From the NCBI GenBank assembly GCA_040752695.1, contig JBFMGO010000045.1, positions 1 through 38,924 on the forward strand: DNA of 38,924 nt, read 5' to 3'. Positions 10,275 to 38,924 of this stretch are shown piece after piece (position 1 is the first letter of the stretch; every line of letters starts with the position of its first letter). Source of the DNA: a bacterium. Lineage in GTDB: Bacteria; SZUA-182; DTGQ01. The translations under genes and the position numbers were made by a program. The notes under the pieces are model-generated. The model was not told the DNA's origin. It was given only the letters and a program-made list of their open reading frames with translations, and made no database searches.

Positions 10275-10880
10275 CTACAGCAAAAGGGCGCTTGGTGTCA
10301 GTAAGGAACTGAGAGCAGGTGCAACCGGTGAACTTATCGATGAAGTATAAAAACTGGGATAAACCGTTACGTACTCCCAATTGGCAGCCGGAACATTTCC
10401 CAAAAGCCACCAGGCTGGTGTTGCCGGAAGACTCTCGTAACCGGACGGCAGGGTGATGCTGATCGGGAGTCCGGTAATGGTGCTCTGTAAAATATCCGGC
10501 GGCCACTTATTGATTCCCAGGAAAGGATCGTAATAAGCCAGGCCAATCGGAGTGTTATACAAAAGCCAGGGATGCCCTAAAGAGGGATGCCAGGTCAGAC
10601 CGGGTTGCACGGGAAGAACCGTGGTACGATAAAGATTCGTGACTATGGGTGTAGGTATACCGGTAACCGGATCGACGGGAGAAAGCGGTGCAGACCACAG
10701 GGGCCACAGGGTATTGTAAGGCGGTAAAGCGGTCCAGTTCGGGCTCGTGGTCGTTGTCGTCGGTGTAGTAAAAGTTGTTGTCGGAGCAACCTGGGCAGCA
10801 GCCATTGAACAGAAGACGAATCCGGCAAACAGAATAAGGAATACTAAAAGAATATTCTTCAACCATTTTTTCTTGTACAT
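10275..10880 (-). CDS. Secreted Pro/Leu/Trp-rich protein, family A (LPPYNTLWPLWS), divergent paralog A0
   Basis: SD AGAAGGAG, signal peptide ending MAAA-Q, Thr-rich linker, then WTALPPYNTLWPLWSAPLSP...VLPVQPGLTW...PWLLYNTP.GLAYYDP, shared with the 33918, 36331 and 38213 genes. Confidence 0.88.
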   Translation of the reverse strand: MYKKKWLKNILLVFLILFAGFVFCSMAAAQVAPTTTFTTPTTTTTSPNWTALPPYNTLWPLWSAPLSPVDPVTGIPTPIVTNLYRTTVLPVQPGLTWHPSLGHPWLLYNTPIGLAYYDPFLGINKWPPDILQSTITGLPISITLPSGYESLPATPAWWLLGNVPAANWEYVTVYPSFYTSSISSPVAPALSSLLTPSALLL

Positions 10881-11193
10881 CTTAATTTCTCCTTCTTTAC
10901 ACTAGATTATTGTGCTCGTTTTCCATGATTAAGTCGAGAAACTTCTACACTCCTGAGACTTCCATACTCCTCTTGCGGCCGCTTAAGGGATATAGATCTC
11001 TTCACACAAACGGTACATACATTCACACTCTCTTTAAAGCTTTTAACATTGAGGTTAAAGCTTTTGAAAGGCATTTATGGAGATTAATACTGCCTGACTC
11101 GAGAAAGGAAAAAACAACTTGATACATAAGCCATCCATCCTCAAATACTGGTTTTGACTATGAAAAAAAAGTCGCAACCTGTCAGTAAGAATA

Positions 11194-11209
11194 TGCAATC
11201 ATCATGCCA
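11194..11209 (-). promoter_or_regulatory. sigma54 promoter upstream of A0
   Basis: Minus strand TGGCATGATGATTGCA (GG-N10-GC). Confidence 0.75.
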
Positions 11210-11351
11210 AATGAGAAAAATAGCAATTCAATACTCGCAATTTTTTATTATATTTCAATATGTTCACTTAATTTTTTTAAATTCTTCCCTCATATTCCAG
11301 GTAATTTGACAGGAGCAAAAAGAGGTCCATAACAGGATGAGTCTCCTATTT

Positions 11352-11412
11352 TCTCAATTTGAGATTATCAAAAGTGTTAAAATGTTTCTTATTGAGACAA
11401 AAATGAGGGACA
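11352..11412. promoter_or_regulatory. Putative enhancer-binding-protein site(s)
   Basis: Palindrome TCTCAATTTGAGA (11352-11364) and a related TTGAGACAAAAATGAG about 140-200 bp upstream of the sigma54 motif. Confidence 0.45.
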
Positions 11413-11773
11413 ATCGTTGCGGGTATTTTTATAGAAGCCTGACAGATATATTTATAGAAGACTGATGGTACTTGCTGTGCCTCCCCTTTGCCCTGTTCCT
11501 GGACACTGAACGTTCCGGATGTTGCTTGTCCAATGCCACTGCCGCCTCTGCCGGGATATGATTATCACGGACGCTTCTTAATGGAAGACGACGCTTCTTA
11601 CTGGAAAACGTTTTTTTGCTAACCGTACCGGATTCTCCACGGCGGGCGAATGGATGAAAACAGGGCAGACGGGAGTTCCTCTGTCTCACTTGTCTCAGGA
11701 TTGAGATACAGTAAAAGCCCTGCTGGCCAAAGGCTCCATAATATCCTGAAGGCTCAAATCCCGCCCCTCCAGG

Positions 11774-12874
11774 TCACTTGAGAGACCGGCGGACCCATGT
11801 TCTGGCTTTTCGAAAATAACAGATAACATATGGAAGAACTTTTCGATTGTAGAGCTGGAGAGTGATTGCCGTCCTGTTCGTAGAGCCCCAACGGTACTTA
11901 TAGTGTTCCTCCCCCCGGAGGAAATCGTACTCCAGGAAACCCTTTTCAATAGCATCCCGGATAGTCCAGGCGAAAAGCAGCGTTCCAGGCCGGAGGAATG
12001 CATATTCCGGCAAAAATCCCGCCTGATAATACCAGATCTTCTTCGCGTACCGGAAATTGAGAATGATGGCCAGGATTTCCTGCTCTCTATGGATGAGTGA
12101 GCAGGAAAGCCAGTCCCTCGCCTGAAACTGATCGAGGACATCAGACAAAAACCGGCGGAAGGAAGTAACCTTTAGGGTTGAATCGATTCCTTTTTGCTCC
12201 ATGCGCAGCCCGTTCAGCTTGCTTAAGGCATTGACCAGCTTGGGAATAGGGAACGTATTCTGGGCATCCGGAAGGTATTTTATTCCGGTCTGGCCTTCGA
12301 ATTTCCTGAGAGAGGAACGAACCTGCTGTCGAAAGTTCCGGCTGAGCCGGCTCAAGAATTGACTCCAGTCTGACGGAAGCTTGACATATGGACACATGAA
12401 GGTTCTCTCCAGTTCAGCCAGATAGGATTGACTGACCGTACGGTAGAGATGATGAACCTTTGAATCCTCCAGTGAAAGGGGATTGAGTACAACCCGGTCC
12501 CAGGGAGGACTGTACTTTTTCAGAAATTCCAGCAGCCGGTGATAGACCTCCAGTTCATACCCCGGAGCGACGATCAGGGAGAGAAATTCCGAGCAGGCTG
12601 GTCCGTCGCTTCCGATAAACCGCAGGGTCTGGACCTTTATCCCCCCCCTGATTTCCTCCTCTTGCATGAACGGGGCAATGCCAACCAGTTCCCTGCCCGC
12701 CCAAAATAAAATCACAAACAGGTTTCTTTTCTGCTGGTAGTGGCACCACCAGGTAAACAGCCACTCCCAGGTTAAAAAAATACTGCCGGAACCGCTTTTC
12801 CCCAGCAGTTTGTTCCACAGGGGCCGCAGTTCGTCGAATTTTTGTTCACTCTGGACAAGTTCAGTGTAAATCAT
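11774..12874 (-). CDS. GNAT-family acetyltransferase (CelD/BcsL-like)
   Basis: IFLTWEWLFTWW, LVGIAPF, LSRNFRQQVR, YYQAGF, RPGTLL, YDFLRGEEHYKYRW. Confidence 0.9.
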   Translation of the reverse strand: MIYTELVQSEQKFDELRPLWNKLLGKSGSGSIFLTWEWLFTWWCHYQQKRNLFVILFWAGRELVGIAPFMQEEEIRGGIKVQTLRFIGSDGPACSEFLSLIVAPGYELEVYHRLLEFLKKYSPPWDRVVLNPLSLEDSKVHHLYRTVSQSYLAELERTFMCPYVKLPSDWSQFLSRLSRNFRQQVRSSLRKFEGQTGIKYLPDAQNTFPIPKLVNALSKLNGLRMEQKGIDSTLKVTSFRRFLSDVLDQFQARDWLSCSLIHREQEILAIILNFRYAKKIWYYQAGFLPEYAFLRPGTLLFAWTIRDAIEKGFLEYDFLRGEEHYKYRWGSTNRTAITLQLYNRKVLPYVICYFRKARTWVRRSLK

Positions 12875-20558: not shown

Positions 20559-21782
20559 ATGCCAGGTCAGACAGAGGCATTATTCATACGGGCAGCGGAC
20601 CGATTGCCCATGAAAGATCAGCCCATAGAGATCGTGGAGAAAAAGGGGAAGGGGCACCCCGATACAATCTGTGACACGGTGATGGAAGAGGCATCTTTTG
20701 CCTTGAACAGCCTTTATCAAAAGTATGCCGGCCGGATCCTTCATTATAACCTGGATAAAGGGTTATTGGCAGCAGGAAAGGCTGCCGTTGCCTTTGGCGG
20801 AGGAGAAATCCTTACCCCCATGAGCATGATTATAGGAGACCGGGCCACTTTTCAGTATGCCGGAAAGGAGCTGCCGGTATGGGATGTTGTTCTCGGATCG
20901 GCCAAAAACTGTATCGGTCGATGTATCCGGTACCTGGATGCAGATCAGCACCTGACCTTCCAGAACGGTCTTCGTCCCGGATCGGGGGAACTTGCAGGAA
21001 TCTTCACTCAGTCAGGGGAAAGAGCGCAGGCCAATGACACATCCGCTGCGGTGGGATTTGCTCCACGGACAGCAGTCGAGGAGATGGTCCTGGCCCTTGA
21101 GGAGTACATCACCTCACAGCGCTTTCAGCTGAAATTTCCGGCTGCCGGTGAAGATGTCAAGATCATGGCTATCCGGAAGGAACAGTCAGTAGACCTGACC
21201 GTTGCCCTGGCCCTGGTAGACCGGTTTATAACCAGTGAAAGTGATTACTTCAATCAAAAAGAGGCCCTAAGCCGAAAGATAGCCGATTTTATCCGCTCCC
21301 GGTTTGACTTTGCCTCCCTGACCGTTCGTCTGAACACCCTGGACCAGCAGGGGAAGGGGACAGACGGACTTTACCTCACGGTCACCGGCACCTCGGCAGA
21401 GCAGGGGGACAGCGGTCAAGTCGGACGGGGCAATCAGATAAACGGCCTCATTTGTCTGAACCGGCCGCAGAGCAATGAAGCGGCGGCGGGCAAAAACCCC
21501 GTTAGTCATGTAGGAAAAATTTATAACTACCTGGCTTTTCTCCTGGCCAGAGATCTTTATGATACCCTTGAGGCGGCAGATGAGATATTGGTCTGGATGA
21601 CCAGCCGGATTGGTGAGTCGGTTGACCGGCCTCATCTGGTTGTGGTTGAGGTTGTTCCTCAAAAGGGGAGGGAATGTGCTGCCGGATACCGGGACATTAT
21701 TTCCTCTTGCCTGCGACACCATCTGGAGCGAATCCCGGAGCTTTGCCAGGAACTTGCCACAGGCAAAGTTGCTCTTCCCTAA
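20559..21782 (+). CDS. mat: Archaeal-type methionine adenosyltransferase (SAM synthetase)
   Basis: EIVEKKGKGHPDTICD, HYNLDK, ANDTS, GEDVKIM, YLTVTGTSAEQGDSGQVGRGN, EAAAGKNPVSHVGKIYN. Confidence 0.92.
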   Translation: MPGQTEALFIRAADRLPMKDQPIEIVEKKGKGHPDTICDTVMEEASFALNSLYQKYAGRILHYNLDKGLLAAGKAAVAFGGGEILTPMSMIIGDRATFQYAGKELPVWDVVLGSAKNCIGRCIRYLDADQHLTFQNGLRPGSGELAGIFTQSGERAQANDTSAAVGFAPRTAVEEMVLALEEYITSQRFQLKFPAAGEDVKIMAIRKEQSVDLTVALALVDRFITSESDYFNQKEALSRKIADFIRSRFDFASLTVRLNTLDQQGKGTDGLYLTVTGTSAEQGDSGQVGRGNQINGLICLNRPQSNEAAAGKNPVSHVGKIYNYLAFLLARDLYDTLEAADEILVWMTSRIGESVDRPHLVVVEVVPQKGRECAAGYRDIISSCLRHHLERIPELCQELATGKVALP

Positions 21783-22909: not shown

Positions 22910-23911
22910 TCACAGGATAGGTGGCAAAACAGACAGTGGTGATACTAAAGCAGGTACTGGTGGTATTACGGCAGGAAATGGCAGTAAACCACCGGCCAGG
23001 GCAATAGCGGCCGTAGCCGTAGTGGCAGCCGGTACTACTGTTGTTGCAGGCAAGACCGTAGCCGCAGGTATGACCGTAGCCGCAGGCAGCGTCGTAGCTA
23101 AAGGCGCTGGAGCCGGAGCTGGCGCTGGAGTAGTGGCTACCGGTGTAATCGTGTTCGTTGCAGTAGGCGGTGCAGGCATTTGGCTGACAAGATCCCAATA
23201 GGTCTGCTGCAAGCCTGCCAATCCTCCCAGCCCTCCATCAAGACCGGTTATTCTCAACAGGTAATCCTGCAGCCCGGCATTGCCGCTGTTGAGTCCGGCC
23301 AGTCCGCCAAGACCGCTCCCGAACAGGCTGCTGCCGCCATAGAGTCCACCGTAGAGACCGCCCATCATGCCGTAGAGACCGCCACCGTAAAGGCCACCGT
23401 AGAGGCTGCTGCCGCCATAGAGTCCGCCGTAGAGACCGCCCATCATGCCGTAGAGACCGCCACCGTAAAGGCCACCGTAAAGGCCACCGTAGAGGCTGCT
23501 GCCGCCATAGAGTCCGCCGTAGAGACCGCCCATCATGCCGTAGAGACCGCCACCGTAAAGGCCACCGTAGAGGCTGCTGCCGCCATAGAGTCCGCCGTAG
23601 AGACCGCCCATCATGCCGTAGAGACCGCCACCGTAAAGGCCGCCGCCATAGAGTCCCCGGCCATAGAGCCCGCCGCCGTAGAGGCTGCTGCCGTAAAGCC
23701 CGCCGTAGAGGCTGCTGCCGTAAAGCCCGCCGTAGAGGCTGCTGCCGTAAAGCCCGCCGTAGAGGCTGCTGCCGTAAAGCCCGCCGCCATAGAGTCCCCG
23801 GCCATAGAGGCTGCTCAGACCCAGTTGGGCGTGGACAGATGTCGTTAAAGAAGTTACAATCAACACTGATAAAGCCGTCACCAATACCTTCAAAAACCAT
23901 TTTTTATTCAC
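22910..23911 (-). CDS. Secreted Gly/Leu/Tyr-rich (GGLYG-repeat) protein with an Ala/Thr/Pro-rich C-terminus
   Basis: GTG start with GAGGGA upstream, signal peptide ending VHA-Q, about 32 LY dipeptides within Gly-rich repeats. Confidence 0.85.
23325..23815 (-). repeat. Nested coding tandem repeats: 27 bp x4 and about 78 bp x4
   Basis: The 27-bp unit (ccgtagaggctgctgccgtaaagcccg on +) encodes GGLYGSSLY. The 26-aa unit [26 protein letters not shown] occurs four times; one copy has an extra 12-bp GGLY and the last is partial. Confidence 0.92.
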
Positions 23912-24102
23912 TTTTATTCCCTCACACAATAACACTGTACATTGAATTTTAACTTCTACAAATACTCTCTTCCCCTTAAGAATACGCTTTTACCGCTTAC
24001 TTTGGGTCCATGAATTATTCTCTCCCTGCATGTGACGATTCACACCTCCTTTCAAAACATGAGGCTCAATGTATTCAACTTATTTCTTCCGTTGATTAAA
24101 GA

Positions 24103-24118
24103 TGCAATTGAAATGCCA
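24103..24118 (-). promoter_or_regulatory. sigma54 promoter upstream of the GGLYG gene
   Basis: Minus strand TGGCATTTCAATTGCA. Confidence 0.75.
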
Positions 24119-26716: not shown

Positions 26717-29700
26717 TTACCTGGAAAAGAAAAACCACCTGGCGAGGGACAGGATGAAACACCCTCCTTGCGATGATTGAAGCTCTTTGGGAGCATAGGG
26801 ATCGTTGGAAGAACCTCCCCCACCATCGGGGCTGTTTGGGTCGCTGAGACTGTTGGGATCGCTGATGCTGTTGGGGTCAGCCTGACTGTTCGGGTCTACT
26901 ACGGCCGCATTCTGGTCCAGGATCAGCAGCTTCACCGATCCTTCTGTCGGCTGGCCGGTAGCCTCCAGGAAGCCGTCCCCAAAAGCAAACCGGTAAGCCA
27001 GACTGATCGGAGGAGTGCCTGAAGGGCTTATTGCCAAAGACCGTGTATAGACCTTGCCATCGCTGAAGTCAGGATCGAGGGAATCGATTTCATCCATGCC
27101 GTATTTTTCAGATTCCTGGTATTGGCCGTCGTTGTTTTCATCCACCCACAGTTGCCTGAACCTCGGAGCGAGATTATTCGAATTGATGTATTTCACCCGA
27201 AACTCGAACCGGAACCCGGACGGTCCGCTGTCCGGATTGACCCCATCGAGCATATAGCCCTCATCCTGTGTCCAGGTTAGATATACCGGAGATGTGGCCT
27301 CGATTTGAGCGCCATTCAGGGACGGCTCGCCGGAAGCAAAATTTTTCCCATCCGAGAAGACAAATTTATACCGGATATTCTCTCCTCCCAAAAGGGAGAT
27401 ATTGAGCAGGAGCGCATATATTTTCCCATCCATCATGTTGGTATCAGACGGTATCAATGCTTCCATGGAATGCTTTTCCCCCTGGCTGAATTGGCCGTCG
27501 GCATTCTCGTCTACCCACACCTCACTTAAAGTTGGAGGATCGTTGTCCTGATCCTGATAAGAAACATGGAATTCATAACCATTTCCTCCCGCTTCCGTTT
27601 TAAAGCGAACCCCTTCGGTAAATCCTCCCTCGGAGGTCCAGGACAGGAGTGGTACGGATGAATTGGGAGTTACGAAAAAAAAATGGTCCGTCGAGGGTTC
27701 TCCTTCGACCGGCCCATTGGCATTGGAAAAGTTAAAGCGGTACTTGACCGTGTTTGCAGCACTGGTTGTTGAATCCGGCAGGTATAAGCAGGAAACCGAT
27801 TTTTGATACCCCCTTCCTTCCGAGAAGCTTTTGGTATCGAAGGCGGCCATGGGGAATTTTTCATCCTGGGAATAGGTATTATCACGGTTTATATCAACCC
27901 ATACTTCAGCAGTTGATGGCGGGTCGTTTTCCGCATCGCGGTATTTGATCATAAGGGAAAAGGCAGAGCCTCCCGGTGCACTGTTGGGCTTTACTCCGTC
28001 AGACTCATAATCGCTCGTGCCCATCCATTCGAGTGACGCGGGACTGTCCCCCAACATGACCGGGTGGTTTTTGACCGGCTCTCCAGTCGCCTCATTCGTT
28101 CCGTCACTGAAAACGAACCGGTAGTTGATTTTTCCATCTCCGGCAAACTCCAGCGTTGTGCTGGCCTTGTAGATAGTTCCTTGAATATAATTGCCTCCCG
28201 ACTCGGCAGTCATGTTCATGATCTTATCCATAAGCGGACTGTCGGGATTGATGGAGTAAATACCATCGTCATCCTGGTCAATCCACAACTGGGCCTTTTG
28301 AGGCGCGAGGTTGTTCACGTTCCGGTATTTTACCCGAAACTCGAAGGTGGTTCCTGCCGGGCCGGTGCCCGGGTTGACTCCGCTGCTCTGGTAGCCGGTC
28401 TCCCCGGTCCAGGAGAGGACAGGAGGAGAAGAGGCTTGGAAAGTCTGGGCATAAATATCGGAATTGTTGGATCGTTTTTCTTCCCAGACAATTACGTACT
28501 CGCCGGTATCTGGCATGCGGGTGACTGCGGCCGGGTAATCCGGAGGAGATAAGCCTACGATGCCTAAGGTTAATCCCGATGATGATTTGGTCTGGCTGTC
28601 AAGGAAGGAACCAGCGCTGCTCAGGCGGGCATAGTAGACTTCGGGCTTCCCCGATCTGGTATCCTTCCACGCTATCAGGTAGTGATTCTCACAAAAGATG
28701 GCTGAGGGATTGAGCTGATCCTGTTGTGCCTGGGTAATTGCAAAAACTCCCCGCGAGTCAAGAACCCCCTGGTCGGAAATCAGGGTGCCTACCACATCGG
28801 CATAGCTGCCCTCTGCGTGAACATCCCAGACCACGAGAAAGTCTTTTCCGTCTGAAACTGCAACCGGGTTCAGTTTAAGCCCCTCACCCCCGCCGATATG
28901 CACGGGAGATCCTAAGACCTGACCCGATGCAGACATCAGGCAGCCGTAAATATCCCCTGTTGATGCATCGACGGTGCTTTGCCAGACAACAAGATAGTCA
29001 GTTCCGTTAAAGGCCCCATAAGGGTTGGTTCCGGGAACTTCGATTCCCGATATGAGCAGCCCGCCGGTGTCCGGGGGGCCATCGAACAACTGGAAATCAC
29101 TGGAGACCCTGGTAGCGTATATTCCCGGAGAGCTAGTGATCCTATGGTCTTCCCAGATGACCAGGTAATTTTGCTCACTTGCGTTCCAGAGCAGGGCAGG
29201 TTGAATCTGGTCACCGGCAGCCGCCGAGATGGCCATGCCCCCCTGTCCCTGGGTCTGGGTTGGCGCGTTGTCCAGAACGCTGCCTGAAGGGTTCACCCTG
29301 GCGCCGCAGATATCGGAATTGTCGGTGCGCTTATCCTCCCAGACAACGAAATAATTGCTCCCGTTCCAGACCGCCAGAGGGTTCTTCTGATCTCCCGATG
29401 CAGTACAAATGGGAAAGGGTGTGGCAGTGGTCTGCTGCTGGCCGGTTGCAGGAGGGTGTATCTGGCTGCCGGACACAATGGCCCCATAGATGTCAGAGGA
29501 TCCATTGACGATGTTTTCCCAGACAACCAGAAAACTCCCCTGTCCGGAATAAGCGATATGCGGATGGGTTTGATCCGTCTGTCCTCCCTGGACCATCACG
29601 TCACTCCACACCCATCCATATACAGAAGAAGAGGACATGAATACCGGAAAAGATCCTGAAAGAACAATAGCCACTATCACGAATAGCGGTGAAGTGATAA

Positions 29701-29749
29701 AATGAATCTTTTTCAGGGAAAGGAAAATAAGCCTTTTCAACTGTCTCAT
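26717..29749 (-). CDS. Large exported protein: propeller-like repeats, four ~125-aa repeats and a GGCFI (CFI-box-CTERM-like) tail
   Basis: Repeated YLVVWED.R...DIYG motifs; four LxW...WVDxNxDG...YRFxFSDG...GEP units; DPNS x4 linker; terminal GGCFILSL. Confidence 0.85.
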   Translation of the reverse strand: MRQLKRLIFLSLKKIHFITSPLFVIVAIVLSGSFPVFMSSSSVYGWVWSDVMVQGGQTDQTHPHIAYSGQGSFLVVWENIVNGSSDIYGAIVSGSQIHPPATGQQQTTATPFPICTASGDQKNPLAVWNGSNYFVVWEDKRTDNSDICGARVNPSGSVLDNAPTQTQGQGGMAISAAAGDQIQPALLWNASEQNYLVIWEDHRITSSPGIYATRVSSDFQLFDGPPDTGGLLISGIEVPGTNPYGAFNGTDYLVVWQSTVDASTGDIYGCLMSASGQVLGSPVHIGGGEGLKLNPVAVSDGKDFLVVWDVHAEGSYADVVGTLISDQGVLDSRGVFAITQAQQDQLNPSAIFCENHYLIAWKDTRSGKPEVYYARLSSAGSFLDSQTKSSSGLTLGIVGLSPPDYPAAVTRMPDTGEYVIVWEEKRSNNSDIYAQTFQASSPPVLSWTGETGYQSSGVNPGTGPAGTTFEFRVKYRNVNNLAPQKAQLWIDQDDDGIYSINPDSPLMDKIMNMTAESGGNYIQGTIYKASTTLEFAGDGKINYRFVFSDGTNEATGEPVKNHPVMLGDSPASLEWMGTSDYESDGVKPNSAPGGSAFSLMIKYRDAENDPPSTAEVWVDINRDNTYSQDEKFPMAAFDTKSFSEGRGYQKSVSCLYLPDSTTSAANTVKYRFNFSNANGPVEGEPSTDHFFFVTPNSSVPLLSWTSEGGFTEGVRFKTEAGGNGYEFHVSYQDQDNDPPTLSEVWVDENADGQFSQGEKHSMEALIPSDTNMMDGKIYALLLNISLLGGENIRYKFVFSDGKNFASGEPSLNGAQIEATSPVYLTWTQDEGYMLDGVNPDSGPSGFRFEFRVKYINSNNLAPRFRQLWVDENNDGQYQESEKYGMDEIDSLDPDFSDGKVYTRSLAISPSGTPPISLAYRFAFGDGFLEATGQPTEGSVKLLILDQNAAVVDPNSQADPNSISDPNSLSDPNSPDGGGGSSNDPYAPKELQSSQGGCFILSLARWFFFSR

Positions 29750-29833: not shown

Positions 29834-29849
29834 AGCAAAACCTGTGCCA
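29834..29849 (-). promoter_or_regulatory. sigma54 promoter upstream of the 1010-aa gene
   Basis: Minus strand TGGCACAGGTTTTGCT, near-perfect consensus, 85 bp from the ATG. Confidence 0.8.
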
Positions 29850-30265: not shown

Positions 30266-33193
30266 ATGGAATTGACTTACTCCCTAAAACGGGCTTTTCT
30301 TTATGTCGTTATCTCCGTGTTTTTTTCCGGCCTTGGCTGCCACCCCAAGCAGGTGGCTGCTCCACCATCGGGGATGAGAGAGAAAGAGAGCGTTCAGTCG
30401 CGCAGCAATGTCCTTTTGATCTCGATCGACACCTTGCGTGCGGATCACCTGGGGTGTTACGGCTACCAGGGAATCGAAACTCCCGTAATTGACCAGTTAG
30501 CCATAGAGGGCGTGAGGTTTACTTCCTGCTATACGGCGGTTCCCATTACTCTGCCCGCTCATGCCACCCTGATGACCGGCCAGTATCCCCCCACGCACGG
30601 CGTCAGGGACAACGGTACCTTTCAACTCGGGGAAGAGAGTCTGACCCTGGCCGAGATTTTTAAAAGCAAAGGATATCAAACCGCTGCTTTTGTCGGTGCC
30701 TTTGTCATCGATTCCCGCTTTGGGCTGGACCAGGGGTTTGATATCTATGATGATCGCATGGAATCCGATGAGGAAAAATCAGATCTTCTGTTTGAAGAAA
30801 GACGGGGTGAGGAGGTCGTCGAAGCTGCACTCGAGTGGCTGACCCATAAAAAACCGGGTCCCTTTTTCCTCTTTATTCACTGCTTCGATCCCCATGCACC
30901 GTATCATCCCCCTGCACCTTTTAGCAGGGAAAATCAAAACTGCGACGACCCCGACAGTCTGGCTTCCTGTTATGATCAGGAGATCGCCTATACCGATGCC
31001 TGCCTTGGCAGGCTGTTTCAGAAGATGAAGGAGATGGGAGTATATGACAAGACCACGATCTGTTTTACCGCGGATCACGGTGAGGCCCTCGGAGAGCATG
31101 AAGAACCGAGCCATTCGGTTTTCGTTTATGACAGCACTCTTCATATCCCTTTGATCGTCCGCTGGCCGGGGAACGTTGCACAGGGTGAGGTTATCGAAAG
31201 CCAGGTGAGCAATGTGGACATTGCTCCCACTCTTCTGGCTCTGGCCAGAATTCACGGGGAAGATTCGATGATGCAGGGGCGCTCCCTTCTCCTGCCAAAA
31301 GGAGCGGACGAAGGGCTGCCCTCTTCGATGGCACAGGGCGGGGAGGCGATCTATTGCGAAACCTATTTCCCCTTTTACAATCACCACTGGAGTCCGCTTC
31401 AGGCCGTCAGGACTGCCGAGTGGAAATACATCAAGGCACCGAGGCCAGAACTCTATCATCTTACGGAAGATCCACGGGAACTTGACAACCTTGCACTGAA
31501 AAGACAGGACCAGCTCAACTATATGCAGGGACTTTTCGCCCACCTGGAGGCACAGTATTTTCCCCCTGAAGACCAAAAACAAAAGGCTAATCTGATCACC
31601 ATGGACCAGGATACCCGAAAGAGGCTGGAGCGACTGGGGTATCTGTGGACCGCTCCGAGTGAAGGACCGAAAAAGGAGATCGGAGCCTACCCTGACCCCA
31701 AAGACATGGTTATGGTCCTCAACTTCTTTAACGTGGCTGCCTATCACTACCTTCACCATGAATACCAAAAGGCTATCGAGCTCTTTCAAAGAAGCCTCGA
31801 AATCGATCCAAAGGATGTATTCGCCTACTTTATGATCGGTTTTATCCATAACAAAACCGGGCAATTCGAAAAGGCTCGCGACGCATTCCAGGAATGCATC
31901 CGCCTTGATCCTGCATACCTGAATGCATATGTGAACCTGGGAGGAGTGTACCTGCAACTGGGTCAGAGGGAAAAGGCATTCCAAAAGATCGATGAGGCCC
32001 TGCAATTGAGTCCGGACTCCATAGAAGTATACCAGAACCTGGGGATCCTCTACAGTTACAGCGGAGAACATGACAAGGCCATCGAGGCGTTCGGTGAAGT
32101 TTTGAAGAAGGATGCCAACTATGTCGAGGCCATGAACGGCCTGGCCAATGAATTCCTAGCCAAAAAAGATTATGCATCCGCTCATGAGTATGCCCAAAAA
32201 GTAATCGGGTTGGATCCCAAAAATGTGGAAGCGTATACCATCAAGGGGAACATTTTTCTTGCTCAGGGAGAGATCCAAGAGGCTGAAGAGAGTATCCGAG
32301 AGGCATTGCGATTTGATCCCAAGAGGGTTAATACCCTTTTAAACCTGGCTGATATTTACATTCAAAAACAGGAGTACGATCTGGCGAAGAAGCACATCGC
32401 CTATGCACAGGAGATTGATCCCAATACAGCTAAAATTTACAACGCCCTTGGTATCATTTCGATGAGGGAGGAAAACGATGCGGATGCACTCGTGCAGTTT
32501 CAGAAAGCGCAACAACTGGAACCAGGATCCGCTGAAATCTATTATAACATGAGCCTTGTCTTCTCACATCGAAATGACCTCGATGGGGCAATTCAGCTTC
32601 TTCAAAGATCCATCGAACTGGACCCCGAAAACCAGAGGGCCTACTTTACCCTGGGAACCATTTTTCACCGCCAGCATAAACTTGACCAGGCTATCGAGGC
32701 CTACCAGTCCGCCCTGAGAGCGGACCCGGACAGCATCGATACGATCTTCCAAATGGGTCTGGTCTATCAGGATGCAGGGAACAGCGATCAGGCTATTGAC
32801 GCCTTTAAGCAGGTTTTGTCCAAAGATGCTCGCCACCTGAACGCTCATATTAAATTGAGCCTGCTCTATTTTGCACTGGGGCAGACCGATCTGGGAATTG
32901 AGGAATGCAGGCATATTTTAGAGATAGATCCTGCCAATGAGGCTGCTCATATCAATCTCGGTTTTACCTTTTTTCGACAAAAAGAATTCGACCAGGCGAT
33001 TCTCGAATATAACCAGGCAATCCAGGTGAATCCGAAAAATCCGGTAAGTTATTTTCATATAGCTACCTGCTATCTGTGGAAGCAGGACATTCCCAAGAGT
33101 GTCGAGTACCTGAAGGAAGCCCTGCGTATTGATCAGGATTATCAACCAGCCAGACAGCTTTTGGATCAAATTCAACCCTTCTTTGGGAAGTGA
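30266..33193 (+). CDS. Sulfatase-like hydrolase/transferase with a C-terminal TPR array, probable lipoprotein
   Basis: Lipobox-like GLGC; ISIDTLRADHL, ITLPAHATLMTG, FDPHAPY, ADHGE; a dozen or more TPR-like repeats. Confidence 0.92.
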   Translation: MELTYSLKRAFLYVVISVFFSGLGCHPKQVAAPPSGMREKESVQSRSNVLLISIDTLRADHLGCYGYQGIETPVIDQLAIEGVRFTSCYTAVPITLPAHATLMTGQYPPTHGVRDNGTFQLGEESLTLAEIFKSKGYQTAAFVGAFVIDSRFGLDQGFDIYDDRMESDEEKSDLLFEERRGEEVVEAALEWLTHKKPGPFFLFIHCFDPHAPYHPPAPFSRENQNCDDPDSLASCYDQEIAYTDACLGRLFQKMKEMGVYDKTTICFTADHGEALGEHEEPSHSVFVYDSTLHIPLIVRWPGNVAQGEVIESQVSNVDIAPTLLALARIHGEDSMMQGRSLLLPKGADEGLPSSMAQGGEAIYCETYFPFYNHHWSPLQAVRTAEWKYIKAPRPELYHLTEDPRELDNLALKRQDQLNYMQGLFAHLEAQYFPPEDQKQKANLITMDQDTRKRLERLGYLWTAPSEGPKKEIGAYPDPKDMVMVLNFFNVAAYHYLHHEYQKAIELFQRSLEIDPKDVFAYFMIGFIHNKTGQFEKARDAFQECIRLDPAYLNAYVNLGGVYLQLGQREKAFQKIDEALQLSPDSIEVYQNLGILYSYSGEHDKAIEAFGEVLKKDANYVEAMNGLANEFLAKKDYASAHEYAQKVIGLDPKNVEAYTIKGNIFLAQGEIQEAEESIREALRFDPKRVNTLLNLADIYIQKQEYDLAKKHIAYAQEIDPNTAKIYNALGIISMREENDADALVQFQKAQQLEPGSAEIYYNMSLVFSHRNDLDGAIQLLQRSIELDPENQRAYFTLGTIFHRQHKLDQAIEAYQSALRADPDSIDTIFQMGLVYQDAGNSDQAIDAFKQVLSKDARHLNAHIKLSLLYFALGQTDLGIEECRHILEIDPANEAAHINLGFTFFRQKEFDQAILEYNQAIQVNPKNPVSYFHIATCYLWKQDIPKSVEYLKEALRIDQDYQPARQLLDQIQPFFGK

Positions 33194-33350
33194 AAATCAG
33201 TAGAGGTAAGGATGTGGTTAATAGTTTTCATATATGCAACTTTTTTCCTAAAATGTGTTCGTGAAGATTCGAATCATCTGGCCGTAAGGCGAGGTATATA
33301 ATTCTGATAATTCAAATGCTTGTCTACTTTTATTTTCTTTTTCTCCATTT

Positions 33351-33366
33351 TGGCATGTGAAATGCA
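33351..33366 (+). promoter_or_regulatory. sigma54 promoter upstream of A1
   Basis: TGGCATGTGAAATGCA, with an IHF-like ATTCAAATGCTTG at 33310-33322. Confidence 0.6.
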
Positions 33367-33611
33367 AGTTTAAACGAAAAATACCTGAGAGGTGAAAATC
33401 AGAACTCATAAGGAATAGGCTCTTATGATGCACTCATATTGGTTTGGTTGATCTGTTTTATACAAATTCTCCCTGAAGAATCCTTTTTGGATATTTTCGA
33501 ATTTATCTGTACCTTCATTTTATAATCGATACGACAAAAAGCAGACTCTTTGAGTCAGGCTTTGCTGATGAATTCCTATGCTATGCAAATGATAAGGTAT
33601 TGTTGTGTCCG

Positions 33612-33663
33612 ATGGTCATAAATTTTATGATCATAAAGAATATGGTCATAAAATTTATGACAT
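33612..33663. promoter_or_regulatory. Tandem palindromic operator pair
   Basis: TCATAAA-T-TTTATGA (33616-33630) and TCATAAA-A-TTTATGA (33646-33660), each preceded by ATGG; centres 30 bp apart. Confidence 0.7.
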
Positions 33664-33917
33664 ATTATAAGCAGAAGGAGGTGGTTAAAAAGATTTTAAG
33701 AAAGGGAAAAATTGTTTGAAAAACTTCAATGAGAACCGCAATCATGAAAGAGAAGGAGAAGAAGGAAGCGCTATTTTAAGGGAATACAGAATGTTTTTGA
33801 GAGCATTTTAAAGAAAAACGCACGGGGCTTCAAAAGGTGAAAGCTCTTGTGTAGACAAGGTATGGCCATTTCTAGGATTTGCAGTTAACGTAACAAGTTG
33901 TAAAGGAGATGTTGATT

Positions 33918-34547
33918 ATGTATTCGAGGAAAAATTGGCTGAAATCTGCTTTATTGGGTTTAGCAGTCCTTATGGGATTATTATTGATTACAGCGCCTGT
34001 AACGCAGGCACAGACATGGATAAATCTTCCGCCTTATAATACGCTGTGGCCGTTGTGGTCTCCTCCCCTTTCCCCGACGAACCCTCTGACCGGACTTCCC
34101 ACGCCGATCGTCAGTAACTTAAAACCGAGCACCGTGCTTCCCGTGCAACCCGGCCTGACCTGGGATCCCCGCAAAACCTATCCGTGGCTTTTGTACAACA
34201 CTCCACTGGGTATGGCTTATTACGATCCTCTATACGGTATCGATACCTGGCCGCCGGATTATCTCAAAGATCCTATTACCGGGCTTCCGGCTCCGATCAA
34301 TCTTTCTCTGATCAAAGGCTGGAGTCTTCTTTTGCCCACAGCCACAAGCTGGTTAACCAACAATGTGCCGGTAGCCAACAATTCCTTTATCAATGCCTAT
34401 CCGGCTTATGCCGTAGCCTATGAGATCCTGCAGGGTGGTACCCTGGCCAGTTACCCGATCTTTGCCTCTTTGTTGAATCCTCCTCCTCCATTGCAATCTC
34501 TTTTGACTCCCTCTCTTCTTTTGGGATTAGGACCACTCGTTCCTTAA
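33918..34547 (+). CDS. Family A secreted protein, copy A1
   Basis: SD AAAGGAG lies 9 nt before the ATG at 33918 (ORF open from 33909). Signal peptide TQA-Q; WINLPPYNTLWPLWSPPLSP. Confidence 0.9.
   Translation: MYSRKNWLKSALLGLAVLMGLLLITAPVTQAQTWINLPPYNTLWPLWSPPLSPTNPLTGLPTPIVSNLKPSTVLPVQPGLTWDPRKTYPWLLYNTPLGMAYYDPLYGIDTWPPDYLKDPITGLPAPINLSLIKGWSLLLPTATSWLTNNVPVANNSFINAYPAYAVAYEILQGGTLASYPIFASLLNPPPPLQSLLTPSLLLGLGPLVP
33951..34547 (+). repeat. 597-bp direct repeat, copy 1
   Basis: By eye identical to 36364-36960 except one base near the stop (CTCGTT vs CTCCTT). Confidence 0.93.
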
Positions 34548-34704
34548 CCCTTTCATTGGGTGCTTAACGATTTTTTAACTAAGTGTGGAGTTTACAGGAA
34601 ACCCCAGACTTATACCAGAGAACATTTTGGTAAAGATACCTGTAACACGGCAGCAGTCAGGCTAGCATAACACCAAAGTCTGGCTGGGTATAAAAATGCA
34701 CTTG

Positions 34705-34748
34705 GTAATCTTGTGCCAGGCAGATTTTACTGCCTGGCACAAGATTAC
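34705..34748 (+). terminator. Perfect 19-bp hairpin between A1 and B1 (terminator or mRNA stabiliser)
   Basis: gtaatcttgtgccaggcag / ctgcctggcacaagattac, 6-nt loop, weak U-tract. Confidence 0.6.
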
Positions 34749-34881
34749 TTATCTTCCTCATATTCCCTCTACGTAATAGCGACTCAAGGAACGACTTTTC
34801 ATTCTTTTGACAAAGAAGTTATACAGATATCTGTTCTTTTTCACAAATACTTAAGTCTAATACCCGAGAAGGAGTTGATCT

Positions 34882-35334
34882 ATGATGAAAAGAAATTTCC
34901 TGACGAAAGGATTATTTTCTCTTGGCATTCTTATGATCGGGATACTGCTTTTCAGGGTCCCCCAAGCTAAGGCCCAGCAACTGAGTCCTTATTATAATCC
35001 TTTTCTTATCCCCTCTTATTTTTGCCCGGTTCCTCTCTACTCACCACCGGTTTCACCTCTGCTCAGTTATCCGAGATCAGCGCAGGTATTCGCTACCTTT
35101 CCTGCTCCCACCCTGCCAATTGCTCCTTCCGCTACTCCTGCTGGGTTGAGTGTAACTGCTCTCATCCCCACAACAACCATTACCGCTGTTGTCCCCCTGA
35201 CTGCCATATTCGCGCCTGTCCCCGTTGCTCCAACCTATAGCCCAATTACCCTGCAGGCCGTCGTACCTGTCGCAAGCGCTACTCCATCGACCATTAATAT
35301 TCTGCTTTCATTAATTAACAGTTGGCTTCTATAA
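34882..35334 (+). CDS. Family B secreted Pro/Thr/Ala-rich protein, B1
   Basis: SD GAAGGAG, signal peptide AKA-Q. FPAPTLPIAPSATPAGLSVTALIPT aligns with B2. Confidence 0.82.
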   Translation: MMKRNFLTKGLFSLGILMIGILLFRVPQAKAQQLSPYYNPFLIPSYFCPVPLYSPPVSPLLSYPRSAQVFATFPAPTLPIAPSATPAGLSVTALIPTTTITAVVPLTAIFAPVPVAPTYSPITLQAVVPVASATPSTINILLSLINSWLL

Positions 35335-35340
35335 CCCCAG

Positions 35341-35375
35341 CCCCTAACATAAAGCCCCTTGGCTTGTGTTAGGGG
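35341..35375 (+). terminator. Hairpin after B1
   Basis: cccctaacat-a-aagcc / ggctt-gtgttagggg. The outer arms match the hairpin after B2. Confidence 0.65.
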
Positions 35376-35543
35376 TAACTCTCATCCTTTTTAGCCCATG
35401 TAATTACAGTCTTACGACACCTATGACTGCATTTGCTTTCATATGTGAAATATTTTTCGTGCGCAGGAGAGGCTCTTATAAAGTATTAACAAAATAACTA
35501 ATTGAATTATAAGGATAAAATAACCTAATCATTCAGCCGTTTC

Positions 35544-35559
35544 TGGCATCTGAAATGCA
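35544..35559 (+). promoter_or_regulatory. sigma54 promoter upstream of A2
   Basis: TGGCATCTGAAATGCA, one base different from the A1 motif. IHF-like site at 35495-35507. Confidence 0.6.
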
Positions 35560-35788
35560 AACCTAATCAGACAGACTTATTTTATCAGGGCAAATTTTGA
35601 CACTCATCTACCCGGCTATAGCTCCTTTTGGATAAGATGCAGTTATTTTTAGTTTGATGTAGTTTTTTTGTTATATTATTGCATCAAGCGATAAACGCGT
35701 ATTGTCTTCCTGTCCTTTTTCCAACTGACCTTGAATTCTCATTTTGTGTCTTGAGTATTCGTGGATGTCTACTCCTGAATATTTGCAA

Positions 35789-35804
35789 TGCATTTATTAT
35801 GCCA
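35789..35804 (-). promoter_or_regulatory. Antisense-oriented sigma54 promoter with IHF site and upstream palindrome
   Basis: TGGCATAATAAATGCA on the minus strand; exact IHF consensus TATCAACTAGTTA at 35848-35860; CCGTATG-N5-CATACGG at 35950-35968. Confidence 0.6.
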
Positions 35805-36330
35805 GAAAGGTTTTTCTGTCTTTAAATGAAGAAATGATAGCCCAGGTTATCAACTAGTTACGGCTATGGGCCGAAAATTTTAAGGCCCGCTTCTGTGAAA
35901 TAATTGAGCTGTGCAGGTGCTCAGAGAAAGGTTCCATTATACAAAAAATCCGTATGGAAATCATACGGTGCCTTGAAATCGTACGGTTCTATAAAGAGTT
36001 ATACTTCAGGAAAACCTTATGAGCATGGAGTATAAAATTTATGAAGATGATTCAGAATTTCCACGCATAAGGGAGGTGATGCTTTTTCTAAACACTATGT
36101 TTTCCCTTATCGATATAATATAAACAATTTTTTTTCACCCCTTGGAAGGGAAGACCGTGAGGATTGTGAGGAAAGGAGTAAATTTAAAGGAGAAAGCAGG
36201 TTTAGAGGAAAAGACCGTTTGGTATGAATAGTTTTAGAGCTGTCATCTTTTTTTGATAGCGTCAATCTTTCAGTAAGTTGGCAACTAATTGAGTATTTAA
36301 AAAATGAAAGGAATGAATAGGAGTATTATT

Positions 36331-36960
36331 ATGGACTTGAGAAAAAAATGTTTTAAATATACCTTATTGGGTTTAGCAGTCCTTATGGGATTATTATTGA
36401 TTACAGCGCCTGTAACGCAGGCACAGACATGGATAAATCTTCCGCCTTATAATACGCTGTGGCCGTTGTGGTCTCCTCCCCTTTCCCCGACGAACCCTCT
36501 GACCGGACTTCCCACGCCGATCGTCAGTAACTTAAAACCGAGCACCGTGCTTCCCGTGCAACCCGGCCTGACCTGGGATCCCCGCAAAACCTATCCGTGG
36601 CTTTTGTACAACACTCCACTGGGTATGGCTTATTACGATCCTCTATACGGTATCGATACCTGGCCGCCGGATTATCTCAAAGATCCTATTACCGGGCTTC
36701 CGGCTCCGATCAATCTTTCTCTGATCAAAGGCTGGAGTCTTCTTTTGCCCACAGCCACAAGCTGGTTAACCAACAATGTGCCGGTAGCCAACAATTCCTT
36801 TATCAATGCCTATCCGGCTTATGCCGTAGCCTATGAGATCCTGCAGGGTGGTACCCTGGCCAGTTACCCGATCTTTGCCTCTTTGTTGAATCCTCCTCCT
36901 CCATTGCAATCTCTTTTGACTCCCTCTCTTCTTTTGGGATTAGGACCACTCCTTCCTTAA
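36331..36960 (+). CDS. Family A secreted protein, copy A2
   Basis: SD AGGAG before the ATG at 36331 (ORF open from 36304). Mature protein equals A1 except the penultimate residue (V/L). Confidence 0.9.
   Translation: MDLRKKCFKYTLLGLAVLMGLLLITAPVTQAQTWINLPPYNTLWPLWSPPLSPTNPLTGLPTPIVSNLKPSTVLPVQPGLTWDPRKTYPWLLYNTPLGMAYYDPLYGIDTWPPDYLKDPITGLPAPINLSLIKGWSLLLPTATSWLTNNVPVANNSFINAYPAYAVAYEILQGGTLASYPIFASLLNPPPPLQSLLTPSLLLGLGPLLP
36364..36960 (+). repeat. 597-bp direct repeat, copy 2
   Basis: Offset 2413 bp from copy 1; the flanks are unrelated. Confidence 0.93.
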
Positions 36961-37025
36961 GCGGATTCCCGGAAGGTGAATGAGATCAGAATGCGGAATG
37001 CAAAAACTCTGAAAGGAGAATAGGT

Positions 37026-37571
37026 ATGAATGAAAGAAAGCTTTTGAAAAGAAATGTACTTATGGCTGGCATCATGGTTTTTTTGCTGCTGGCATTTTTT
37101 GCTCCAAAGGTGAATGCCCAAATCGGGCCATTCGGGCCATTCTATAGTCCGCTTGCCGGATTCGGCCCCTTTGGCTATACTCCCTATTTGCCCCCTGCTG
37201 CACCTTTACTTGGGGTTGGTCCTTTCCGGACTGCTCATGTCCCAGTGACCGCTGCTTCTTTGTTTCCTGCTCCTACAGTCCCCACTGCTCCTGCAGTCAC
37301 CATCGCCGGCGTTGGAGTGACAGCCTTGATTCCAACGGTTCCGGTCGCTACAACTGTTCCGGCCAGTGTCCTGGTCACTAATCCATTGGCTCCTCTGATT
37401 ACCTACACCCCCTTAAGCCTGATCGGGCTCACCTACGCGCCAATTCCTGTTACATCTGCTCCTGTTCCTATTCCTATCACCACAATCACCACGATACCGA
37501 CAATAACTCCCACGGTGGCTGCCACGACTGCCGCCACTCTCGTTTCCCTGCTGAGTAGTTTACTCATCTAG
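37026..37571 (+). CDS. Family B secreted Pro/Thr/Ala/Val-rich protein, B2
   Basis: SD GAAAGGAG, signal peptide VNA-Q, FPAPTVPTAPAVTIAGVGVTALIPT. Confidence 0.85.
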   Translation: MNERKLLKRNVLMAGIMVFLLLAFFAPKVNAQIGPFGPFYSPLAGFGPFGYTPYLPPAAPLLGVGPFRTAHVPVTAASLFPAPTVPTAPAVTIAGVGVTALIPTVPVATTVPASVLVTNPLAPLITYTPLSLIGLTYAPIPVTSAPVPIPITTITTIPTITPTVAATTAATLVSLLSSLLI

Positions 37572-37594
37572 GGTACCTTTTTACAGGTTGCATT

Positions 37595-37633
37595 TCCTAA
37601 CATAAGCGCTCTTTGAAAGCGCTTATGTTAGGA
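37595..37633 (+). terminator. Hairpin after B2
   Basis: 16-bp stem tcctaacataagcgct / agcgcttatgttagga followed by T-rich sequence. Confidence 0.72.
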
Positions 37634-38212
37634 TATTTCTTCCCCTGCCCAAAAATGGACTTCCTTCCATGAACTCCTTACACGATATGTGCCCTGTATC
37701 ATAAAATCTTCCTTTCATTGCTCCCACTTTTATCTAAACTGTCTATCAATAATCATCTTTTTTAAGGACTTAAGGTAAAAAAGTCGTTCATCTTATCTGG
37801 TACATGAATTGCTCTCTTGAGAATAAGAGCCTTTACTGCCAAGACTTGTGAAGGGATTATTCGTAAAGGTTAATGGGAGAGATGCAAAGTGGTTAGGGGA
37901 GAGTATTTGCCAAATCTGGAGCAGTCCTCTATTTTTCCTGCTCTTACTCTCTTGTTTACTCTCCTGTATTTTTTCACTGGAATTTTCATCCGCGGTGCTC
38001 ATCGCAAGTTCAGCCGGATAAAGGAGGTGGAGCCTCTAGAGAATATGCCTTGAAAAATTATTTATTCACTCATCATCAACCTGACAACGTGAAAAGAGAG
38101 GAGGGTCATTAATCTTTCGGTTCGGACAGTGCTCTTTATTCGTTTTTCCATCCATCTGTTATTCTGTTATTGAAAGCCGATGGGTCGCAATTTCAAAAAG
38201 GAGGTGTTTTTT

Positions 38213-38842
38213 ATGTTTTCCAAAAAACGCATGCTTTCTCTGGTAGCCCTGGGGTTACTCATAGGAGTGGGAATCGCCTGGCTGTTTACTCCGGCGGCTC
38301 AGGCAGCCAACTGGATAAATCTTCCACCTTATAATACCTTATGGCCATTATGGTCTCCTCCCCTTTCCCCGACGAACCCCTTGACCGGATTACCCACGCC
38401 AATCGTCAGCAATCTAAAGCCGAGCACCGTACTCCCCGTGCAGCCCGGCCTGACCTGGGATCCGAGACTCAAGTATCCGTGGCTCTTGTACAATACCCCG
38501 CTGGGCATGGCTTATTATGATCCTCTCTATGGTATCGATACCTGGCCGCCGGATTATTTCAAAGATCCTATTACCGGCCTTCCGGTCCCGATCAATCTTA
38601 CTCTGATCAAGGGCTGGAGTCTTCTCTTGCCCACGTCCACAAGCTGGCTGAGCAACAACGTGCCAGTAGCCAACAATGCCTTCATCAATGCCTATCCGGC
38701 TTATGCCGTAGCCTACGAGATCCTCCAGGGAGGAACTCTGGCCAGTTACCCGATTTTTGCCTCTTTGTTGAATCCTCCTCCTCCGCTGCAATCTCTCTTG
38801 ACTCCCGCTCTTCTCCTCGGTCTGGGGGCTTTGGCTCCTTAA
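38213..38842 (+). CDS. Family A secreted protein, copy A3
   Basis: SD AAGGAGGTG before the ATG at 38213 (ORF open from 38180). Different signal peptide; the mature region has about a dozen substitutions relative to A1. Confidence 0.9.
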   Translation: MFSKKRMLSLVALGLLIGVGIAWLFTPAAQAANWINLPPYNTLWPLWSPPLSPTNPLTGLPTPIVSNLKPSTVLPVQPGLTWDPRLKYPWLLYNTPLGMAYYDPLYGIDTWPPDYFKDPITGLPVPINLTLIKGWSLLLPTSTSWLSNNVPVANNAFINAYPAYAVAYEILQGGTLASYPIFASLLNPPPPLQSLLTPALLLGLGALAP

Positions 38843-38892
38843 GTTTTTCGCTTCTCTTTCGAGCTGGCTGAATCTTTCGAGGCAGTTTTCGT

Positions 38893-38924
38893 GTATCAGA
38901 CAGGGAATATTCCCTGTCTGATAC
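38893..38924. repeat. Perfect 32-bp palindrome at the window end
   Basis: gtatcagacagggaat|attccctgtctgatac. Confidence 0.9.

Follow-up and report, generated by a model that had tools for sequence, protein, structure and literature searches.

Which function stands behind the repeated gene cassettes at the end of contig JBFMGO010000045.1? In this contig, whose full length of 38,924 nt is referred to as the window, three genes for exported proteins of one family, here termed A (A1, 33918-34547; A2, 36331-36960; A3, 38213-38842; all on the plus strand), alternate with two genes for exported companion proteins, termed B (B1, 34882-35334; B2, 37026-37571; both on the plus strand). A divergent paralogue, A4 (10275-10880, minus strand), is situated amid polysaccharide-synthesis genes. 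Judging from sequence comparisons, A is an undescribed family which is confined to one order of a small uncultured phylum. We tentatively regard its members as building and anchoring modules of the cell envelope or surface that are deployed conditionally, and we place the chance of this reading slightly below even. It is derived from the combination of export, a nearly uncharged sequence, predicted self-association, cargo carried on Pro/Thr stalks, the copy number within a single order, and apparent sigma-54 control.

Sequence and distribution of family A

The coordinates that the first-pass annotation, made from the sequence alone, had assigned to A1-A4 agree with the listing of open reading frames (ORFs) and with Shine-Dalgarno spacing. 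The longest ORF of A1 opens at 33909, and those of A2 and A3 begin at 36304 and 38180, respectively. For all three genes the Shine-Dalgarno spacing favours the starts at 33918, 36331, and 38213; in case of A1, an AAGGAG box is located 9 nt ahead of the ATG. Three near-identical genes and a divergent fourth had been described, and this description holds: the mature parts of A1 and A2 differ by 1 nt, A3 is 84-86% identical to A1 and A2, and A4 shares approximately 58% identity over the core. Between A1 and A3, synonymous (dS) and nonsynonymous (dN) divergence amount to 0.60 and 0.048, respectively (dN/dS 0.08). A1-A4 are real genes under purifying selection.

A tract of 588 nt is identical, with zero differences, between A1 (33951-34538) and A2 (36364-36951). 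Outside the tract, identity drops to approximately 30%, the boundaries being located just inside the coding start and precisely at the stop codon. Identity between B1 and B2 amounts to no more than about 35%, and the A-B spacers measure 334 and 65 nt, respectively. Since the tract is limited to the A coding sequence, the comparison indicates gene conversion between A1 and A2 rather than a recent duplication of the whole cassette. An assembly artefact is a less probable source of the tract, the contig being metagenome-derived.

An alignment of 29 paralogues reveals a common layout that consists, in order, of a Sec-type signal, a domain of approximately 150 aa at the mature N-terminus, a variable stretch, which takes the form of long Pro/Thr repeats in some paralogues, and a short tail S-L-L-T-P-x-a-l-L(GL). 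The Sec-type signal peptides, likewise noted at first pass, were judged by eye alone, and by this inspection n-, h-, and c-region features were seen, namely a basic n-region, a hydrophobic core, and A-x-A before Q/A-N/T-W. The shared domain opens with Q/A-N/T-W-x-x-L-P-P-Y-N-T-L-W-P-L-W-S-P. W37, P42-W50 (PYNTLWPLW), L54-P56, and 18 further columns are invariant in an alignment of 36 sequences, which establishes the shared core motif as real, and among 218 distinct sequences, most positions of the block W37...PPYNTLWPLW..LSP...PWLLYNTP.G..YYDP..G...WPP show an invariance of at least 90%. Mature A1 (178 aa, counted past the A-x-A site) consists of 18% Pro and 19% Leu and contains 8 Trp, 11 Tyr, and only 11 charged residues (6 D/E and 5 K/R). 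Compared with 3680 crude genes of the same genome, its charge falls into the 2nd percentile and its Pro and Trp contents lie above the 99th. None of the mature proteins A1-A4 contains Cys. Few charges and the lack of Cys had been emphasised before and are confirmed by these counts.

No family was matched by A1, A2, A3, B1, or B2 in Pfam at E<=1, and neither A (A4 included) nor B had a match in NCBIfam or PHROGs. A family-profile search of the PDB sequences gave three matches at chance level only (E 1.3-1.9), and no usable feature match for A1 or P0031 was obtained from the ESM Atlas. The statement that A belongs to no named family is thus upheld by the searches of Pfam, NCBIfam, PHROGs, and the PDB sequences. 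A limited library search of the literature found nothing on the motif string or on descriptive terms of the family.

Among 5.8 billion clusters, 444 homologues of A1 were found at E<=1e-3, all of them unnamed or annotated as "hypothetical", and a 36-member profile retrieved 100 representatives at E<=1e-3 from 1.84 billion clusters (50% identity). The genome of the window (6.05 Mb, 239 contigs) contains 29 full-length copies, so that the A genes are multicopy as well as strongly conserved, as claimed. In addition, one degraded copy on contig C49 (8333-8874, minus strand) is split across three overlapping frames and probably represents a pseudogene. Within the phylum, for which 20 genomes were available, the family is present throughout one order, with 11-68 matches in each of its 13 genomes, and it was found in none of the seven other genomes (85-97% complete) and in none of 21 further genomes.

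Domain use and predicted trimer

The A domain is also carried by 20 longer proteins, where it is located nearly always right behind the signal peptide; in case of P0141, it occupies residues 1032-1175. The other modules of these proteins comprise a beta-helix together with PKD (P0136), an LVIVD propeller (P0143), FG-GAP together with BACON (P0163), and an M14 peptidase (P0252). In a relative, seven genes in tandem (locus L108; contig C12 of genome G007, 71000-90900) encode proteins in which the A domain is followed by Pro/Thr linkers and then by one to six copies of an unnamed beta-rich unit of approximately 100 aa (EQAGTW.G.W...MTLNL.ED...GSF.L.L). Ahead of this array, a gene for a 533-aa protein specifies linkers and the unit without an A domain. 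Due to its position atop diverse exported, surface-type proteins, the A domain is regarded as a portable module, and with respect to this multidomain use, a simple coat subunit would be no better an explanation than a module for anchoring or oligomerisation.

In the multidomain members, the "SLLTP..ILG" tail lies within the chain and runs on into the Pro/Thr linker, which rules out a C-terminal sorting tag. Of the 42 ORFs matched by a strict regular expression for the tail, nearly all clear cases are members of family A. The tail is now read as the end of the A domain. Two further C-terminal signals were considered and rejected. A PEP-CTERM signal combines a C-terminal motif with a transmembrane helix and a basic tail; the A tails, which end ...SLLTPsallGL..., have no basic cluster and are therefore no PEP-CTERM/exosortase signals. 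An outer-membrane beta-signal was discarded by inspection, since the last residue of the A tails is P, L, or I instead of an aromatic one.

Self-association, which had been proposed for A at first pass, finds a counterpart in silico. For three copies of A1 residues 35-212, predicted with the family alignment, the interaction prediction score from aligned errors (ipSAE) was 0.90, 0.00, and 0.82, and the median of 0.82 for this putative homotrimer compares with 0.18 for the best of three controls. The partner predicted local distance difference test (pLDDT) was at least 69 in these runs (91 in the best run), and the contacts agree by at least 6% between runs. Of the solved proteins used for calibration, 20 of 30 pairs and one of 23 single chains attained the mark for the trimer score; two copies and the proteins' own alignments were used there, so that these counts are only roughly valid for the A1 trimer. 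As no solved relative is present in the PDB, the score does not reflect a remembered complex.

The predicted interface comprises residues 104-118, 146-166, and 183-212. Residues 146, 150-151, 154-155, 157-158, 161-162, and 165-166 follow a helix-like spacing, each meeting its own copies, and from this contact list we infer that a helix of A1 may lie on the three-fold axis. By the same reading, the tail (residues 194-212) would pack on residues 106-110 and 159-163 of the neighbouring chain in the predicted trimer.

Promoters and neighbouring genes

The spacers upstream of A1, A2, and A3 had been described as AT-rich regulatory DNA of 0.6-1 kb. Their lengths (724, 996, and 641 nt, respectively) and a GC content of 0.36 across 33001-34000 are in agreement with this description, but the spacers are not merely AT-rich, since they harbour putative sigma-54 promoters and long leaders. 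Matches to the pattern TGGYAYN5WTGCW (-24 GG/-12 GC type) were observed for A1 (TGGCATGTGAAATGCA, 33351-33366, plus strand), A2 (TGGCATCTGAAATGCA, 35544-35559, plus strand), A3 (TGGTACATGAATTGCT, 37798-37813, plus strand), and A4 (TGGCATGATGATTGCA, 11194-11209, minus strand). The window as a whole contains 7 sites compared to 0.25 expected, a number reached by none of 100 shuffles. Genome-wide, the pattern occurs at 192 sites (0.016 per kb per strand), and 13 of the 29 A genes possess a canonical-looking site within 1.3 kb upstream, compared to approximately 0.6 expected. In related genomes, such a site was present at 24 of 88 eligible A genes, with 43 sites over 73 loci. The distance from promoter to conserved A motif is 240-900 nt, which corresponds to leaders of approximately 150-800 nt. 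The genome contains a single copy of rpoN and 41 matches to PF00158, 38 of them strong enhancer-binding proteins (E<1e-30). Motif enrichment together with the presence of rpoN and enhancer-binding proteins thus assigns the A genes, at the level of sequence, to the sigma-54-dependent type.

Further sigma-54-type sites of the window are located on the minus strand. One (29834-29849) precedes a 1010-aa GEVED-domain gene (26717-29749, minus strand) by approximately 85 nt, and another (24103-24118) is situated 5' of an unnamed 341-aa gene (22910-23935, minus strand). A motif in the B1-A2 spacer (35789-35804) faces B1 and represents either a chance match or an antisense promoter.

A structured leader shared by the A genes was rejected: the A1 leader has a z score of -2.4, mostly owing to one 21-bp hairpin, and the A3 leader one of +0.72, and the comparison of A1 and A3 folding revealed no common structure. 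At 33614-33660, a palindromic element, GGTCATAAA(A)TTTTATGA, occurs twice, and its two copies form the 21-bp hairpin. A related element, ATAAAATTTAT, is found in the A2 leader near 36034, and the palindrome is possibly a protein-binding site.

NtrC-type regulator genes, some of them accompanied by a gene for a Cache- or PAS-type kinase, are divergently oriented to the A1-type copies on contigs C1 and C164. In the window, no regulator gene was found near A1-A3. Among the 73 related loci, enhancer-binding proteins are encoded in 12, in 6 of these within 1.5 kb, compared to approximately 4.6 loci as extrapolated from their density in this genome; kinases and regulators of a looser BLAST cluster are represented in 23. 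Many paralogues with promoters of their own, often with their own kinase and regulator, would also suit proteins that bind or carry hydrophobic substrates in the periplasm or after secretion and that are individually induced, within nutrient or stress responses, via a dedicated two-component/sigma-54 sensor. In keeping with this, TolC-like/HlyD/MacB or ABC export genes were noted in the vicinity of 4 of 19 loci in this genome, and a FadL-type channel in that of one, both being raw counts. Fusions to beta-helix, PKD, propeller, and peptidase modules via Pro/Thr linkers are a poor fit to a carrier, however, and the extreme invariance of one motif across paralogues speaks against varied ligands. 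We consider such a role distinctly unlikely.

B1 and B2, which were identified in the ORF listing, are rich in Pro, Thr, Ala, and Val (B1) and almost uncharged. Linked to each other by phmmer (4.9e-10), they form a small family with three further proteins, i.e., five copies in the genome, and B2 has 21 homologues in 5.8 billion clusters. The mature proteins contain one charged residue each and reach grand average of hydropathy (GRAVY) values of 0.78 and 0.98, respectively (97th-99th percentile). Strong B matches were observed behind an A gene in 3 of the 73 related loci (L013, L015, and L017), in two of which a second, B'-type gene comes next; one more locus contains the B'-type gene only. The A-B order also occurs in genome G002, and the A-B pair of the sister species lies at a contig end. 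In a quick IQ-TREE maximum-likelihood tree of 113 A members, a B-linked label was given to 8 A genes, of which 7 belong to a single clade of 13 rows (Shimodaira-Hasegawa-like approximate likelihood-ratio test, SH-aLRT, 91). In two cases, A3 and the second copy on C1, the label stems from a B gene that is located upstream and belongs to the neighbouring A gene. Most A paralogues occur alone or in A-A tandems. The proposal that B accompanies A therefore stands for L013, L015, L017, and G002, where the A-B order recurs, but not in general: with 3 of 73 loci and one clade, B appears to be an accessory of the A1-type clade only.

Instead of A, B might be the real polymer of the A1-type cassettes, an uncharged, beta-branched, Pro-rich fibre or film which A1-type proteins nucleate, cap, or chaperone; all other members of the A family would then have some other job. 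The near absence of charge and the GRAVY percentiles of B1 and B2 are consistent with this idea, as are the A-B(-B') order in L013, L015, L017, and G002 and the concentration of labelled A genes in one clade. With 21 homologues and five genome copies, B is far less numerous than A, and its low-complexity sequence may be disordered, so that we regard this alternative as very doubtful. Small, secreted, multicopy genes which are paired in the window may furthermore recall a toxin, bacteriocin, or signal protein with B as immunity protein or partner. Strong purifying selection, the invariant core without sign of diversification, the absence of toxin and defence families from the Pfam, NCBIfam, and PHROGs results, the signal peptide of B itself, and the majority of A genes without B render this explanation highly improbable.

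The order [A1-B1-hairpin][A2-B2-hairpin][A3...] was found as claimed, with ORFs and hairpins located on the plus strand. The hairpin 3' of B1 (35341-35375, plus strand; 9-bp stem CCCCTAACA/TGTTAGGGG) was read from the sequence; lacking a T-run behind its stem, it escaped the terminator scan. The hairpin 3' of B2 (37595-37633, plus strand) is perfect over 16 bp and terminator-like. An Rfam scan of 33000-38924 yielded microRNA models only, on the B2 hairpin and below gathering scores, which were treated as chance matches; no Rfam family was thus assigned to the A leaders in this range. The contig ends at 38924, 82 nt past A3, so any B3 would be cut off. A second kind of companion is possibly given by an unnamed protein of 210-220 aa that ends ...VSPQE..(I/L)YFI.D..(F/L)S.(P)Q(Q) and adjoins the most divergent A clusters (L100, 5264-5896, minus strand; L103, 5143-5805, plus strand; G000 contigs C21 and C122).

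Directly 5' of A1, a gene at 30266-33193 (plus strand) encodes a sulfatase-like protein of the alkaline-phosphatase superfamily with TPR repeats (Pfam Sulfatase, 4.7e-55, and many TPR families). The 13 A-bearing genomes contain 7-22 sulfatase-like/TPR matches each (E<=1e-30), and the other 7 genomes 0-2, to one part only. In this genome, 3 of 15 sulfatase-like genes are located at most 3 kb from an A gene compared to 0.44 at random, a value of 3 being reached by 24 of 2000 permutations. Four of the 73 related loci contain a sulfatase-like/TPR gene, in each case 217-479 bp from an A gene. The link to A is suggestive but modest, and related genomes are not independent samples for this association. 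Copies were also noted on G000 contigs C28, C21, C38, C13, and others. T-L-P-A-H of the window copy aligns with S-G-P-S-R of a solved GlcNAc-6-sulfatase, and 13 of the 15 paralogues of this genome carry T-L-P-[AS]-H instead of the formylglycine motif C/S-x-P-x-R. Due to this replacement, true sulfatase activity is unlikely. Within the alkaline-phosphatase superfamily, a nucleophilic Thr is typically found in phosphodiesterases and phosphotransferases.

The polysaccharide-synthesis cluster around A4 (339-12874) comprises two GT4 genes, an AsnB-type amidotransferase gene, an oxidoreductase/epimerase fusion, a GT2 gene, and a FemAB-like acetyltransferase gene. Elsewhere in the window, the gene at 20559-21782 (plus strand) encodes an S-adenosylmethionine synthetase of the archaeal type (PF01941, 2.8e-138), an unusual form for a bacterium.

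Possible function and known counterparts

If A is a conditionally deployed module of the envelope or surface, the exported domain would self-associate as in the predicted trimer, stand-alone copies would form a hydrophobic protein layer, and, by way of the Pro/Thr-rich spacers behind it, the A domain would tether enzymes and adhesin-like domains to this layer. Transcription would start from the sigma-54 promoters 150-800 nt upstream of the A genes, which are probably switched by the neighbouring pairs of histidine kinase and enhancer-binding regulator, so that paralogues would answer different signals. In the A1-type clade, the very hydrophobic, uncharged B would contribute an accessory component. 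A location beyond the periplasm, layer formation, anchoring, and the roles of B and of the sulfatase-like/TPR enzymes are the steps which we infer. The organism is diderm, as Omp85/TamA, TamB, LptE, and TolC-like proteins are encoded.

Several observations weigh against this proposal. One of the three A1 trimer runs scored 0.00, and conservation is lower at the interface than in the remainder of the mature protein (0.51 versus 0.66; mean top-residue fraction, 218 sequences). A strict sigma-54 site is missing from 16 of the 29 A genes, some of which lie inside tandem operons. Both regulators (12 of 73 loci) and sulfatase-like genes (4 of 73 loci) are neighbours in a minority of cases. Furthermore, no outer-membrane route was identified for A, and the proteins could be retained in the periplasm.

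The lower conservation of the interface implies that the invariant N-terminal core serves a purpose outside the trimer model, which may lie in the fold itself, in contacts of higher order, or in a common ligand. The last of these leads to an alternative in which the A domain binds or anchors to a lineage-specific envelope polymer, e.g., a surface glycan, and stand-alone copies cap or shield this polymer without any lattice. The aromatic core (PPYNTLWPLW, PWLLYNTP, YYDP, and WPP) would then be the binding face. Aromatic surfaces are known to bind glycans, and SLH domains and the N-terminus of RsaA anchor in this way. The position of the invariant aromatic and Pro-rich residues outside the predicted trimer interface, the diversity of cargo proteins headed by the A domain, the strictly order-specific distribution, the situation of A4 amid glycosyltransferase, epimerase, and acetyltransferase genes, and the co-expanded, adjacent Thr-type sulfatase-like/TPR enzymes are in agreement with polymer binding. 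Conversely, no carbohydrate-binding family was matched in Pfam and no ligand is known, most A copies stand alone and have nothing to anchor, and only one of approximately 29 copies is located in a glycan cluster. Overall, polymer binding seems rather unlikely to us.

Returning to the surface module as the preferred reading, it is tempting to speculate on a bolder version, an envelope layer of new fold in which the 11-68 A paralogues are interchangeable and join as trimers in one lattice, resulting in a modular coat programmable by signals. The paralogues would slot in via the invariant PPYNTLWPLW core, each under its own sigma-54 sensor circuit, and the same socket would display enzymes or adhesins on Pro/Thr stalks. 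The Thr-nucleophile sulfatase-like/TPR lipoproteins would process or attach the subunits or a docking polymer. We hold this version to be improbable as a whole.

One order of an almost unstudied phylum spends 11-68 genes per genome on a family without detectable relative, which is probably tied to the building and remodelling of the surface of these cells. Once known, the function of A would explain a major lineage-specific investment, and it may reveal a new fold together with an anchoring or oligomerising module, possibly of use as a display scaffold. The sigma-54 promoters, the cognate regulators, and the B and sulfatase-like/TPR partners offer handles on this function.

Among known systems, A resembles the chaplins and rodlins of Streptomyces, BslA of Bacillus, and the fungal hydrophobins in being small, secreted, hydrophobic, poor in charges, present in multiple paralogues, and thought to coat a surface. 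Unlike chaplins and hydrophobins, A comprises approximately 180 aa instead of 50-100, consists of 18% Pro, has no Cys, occurs in a diderm host, and also serves as a module. A trimer rather than an amyloid or film is predicted, and no sequence relation exists (no Pfam family at E<=1). A chaplin was excluded by the lack of a Chaplin match in Pfam for A1-A3, B1, and B2. Fungal hydrophobins contain eight conserved cysteines forming four disulfides, and the Cys-free mature proteins A1-A4 are thus no hydrophobins.

In terms of regulation, the closest parallel is given by pilA with PilS/PilR, a sigma-54-dependent structural gene beside a kinase and an enhancer-binding regulator in Pseudomonas, Myxococcus, and Geobacter. 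Shared features are the sigma-54-type promoter, a gene that encodes a small surface subunit of the abundant type, and the adjacent, divergent genes for kinase and NtrC-type regulator. In contrast to pilA, A possesses an ordinary Sec signal with A-x-A and no N-terminal hydrophobic helix, and its leaders are unusually long (150-800 nt). Type IV pilins carry a class III prepilin leader that is cut before a hydrophobic N-terminal helix; as the mature N-terminus of A, inspected by eye, is a Pro/Trp-rich core behind A-x-A and no prepilin leader is present, a type IV pilin was rejected.

With BclA of the Bacillus exosporium, a trimeric surface fibre that combines a globular head with Pro/Thr- or collagen-like spacers, A shares the predicted trimer and, in many members, Pro/Thr linkers and beta-rich repeats, although neither sequence similarity nor collagen GXY repeats were detected. 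As in case of the SLH domain and the N-terminal anchor of Caulobacter RsaA, the A domain is N-terminal, lineage-restricted, shared by structural proteins and by enzymes or adhesins, and followed by spacers and cargo. It differs from these anchors in that it has no Pfam match, which also excluded an SLH-domain protein, that most A genes encode the module alone, and that no bound polymer is known. Though an entirely new family, A may work like a coat subunit or an S-layer anchor.

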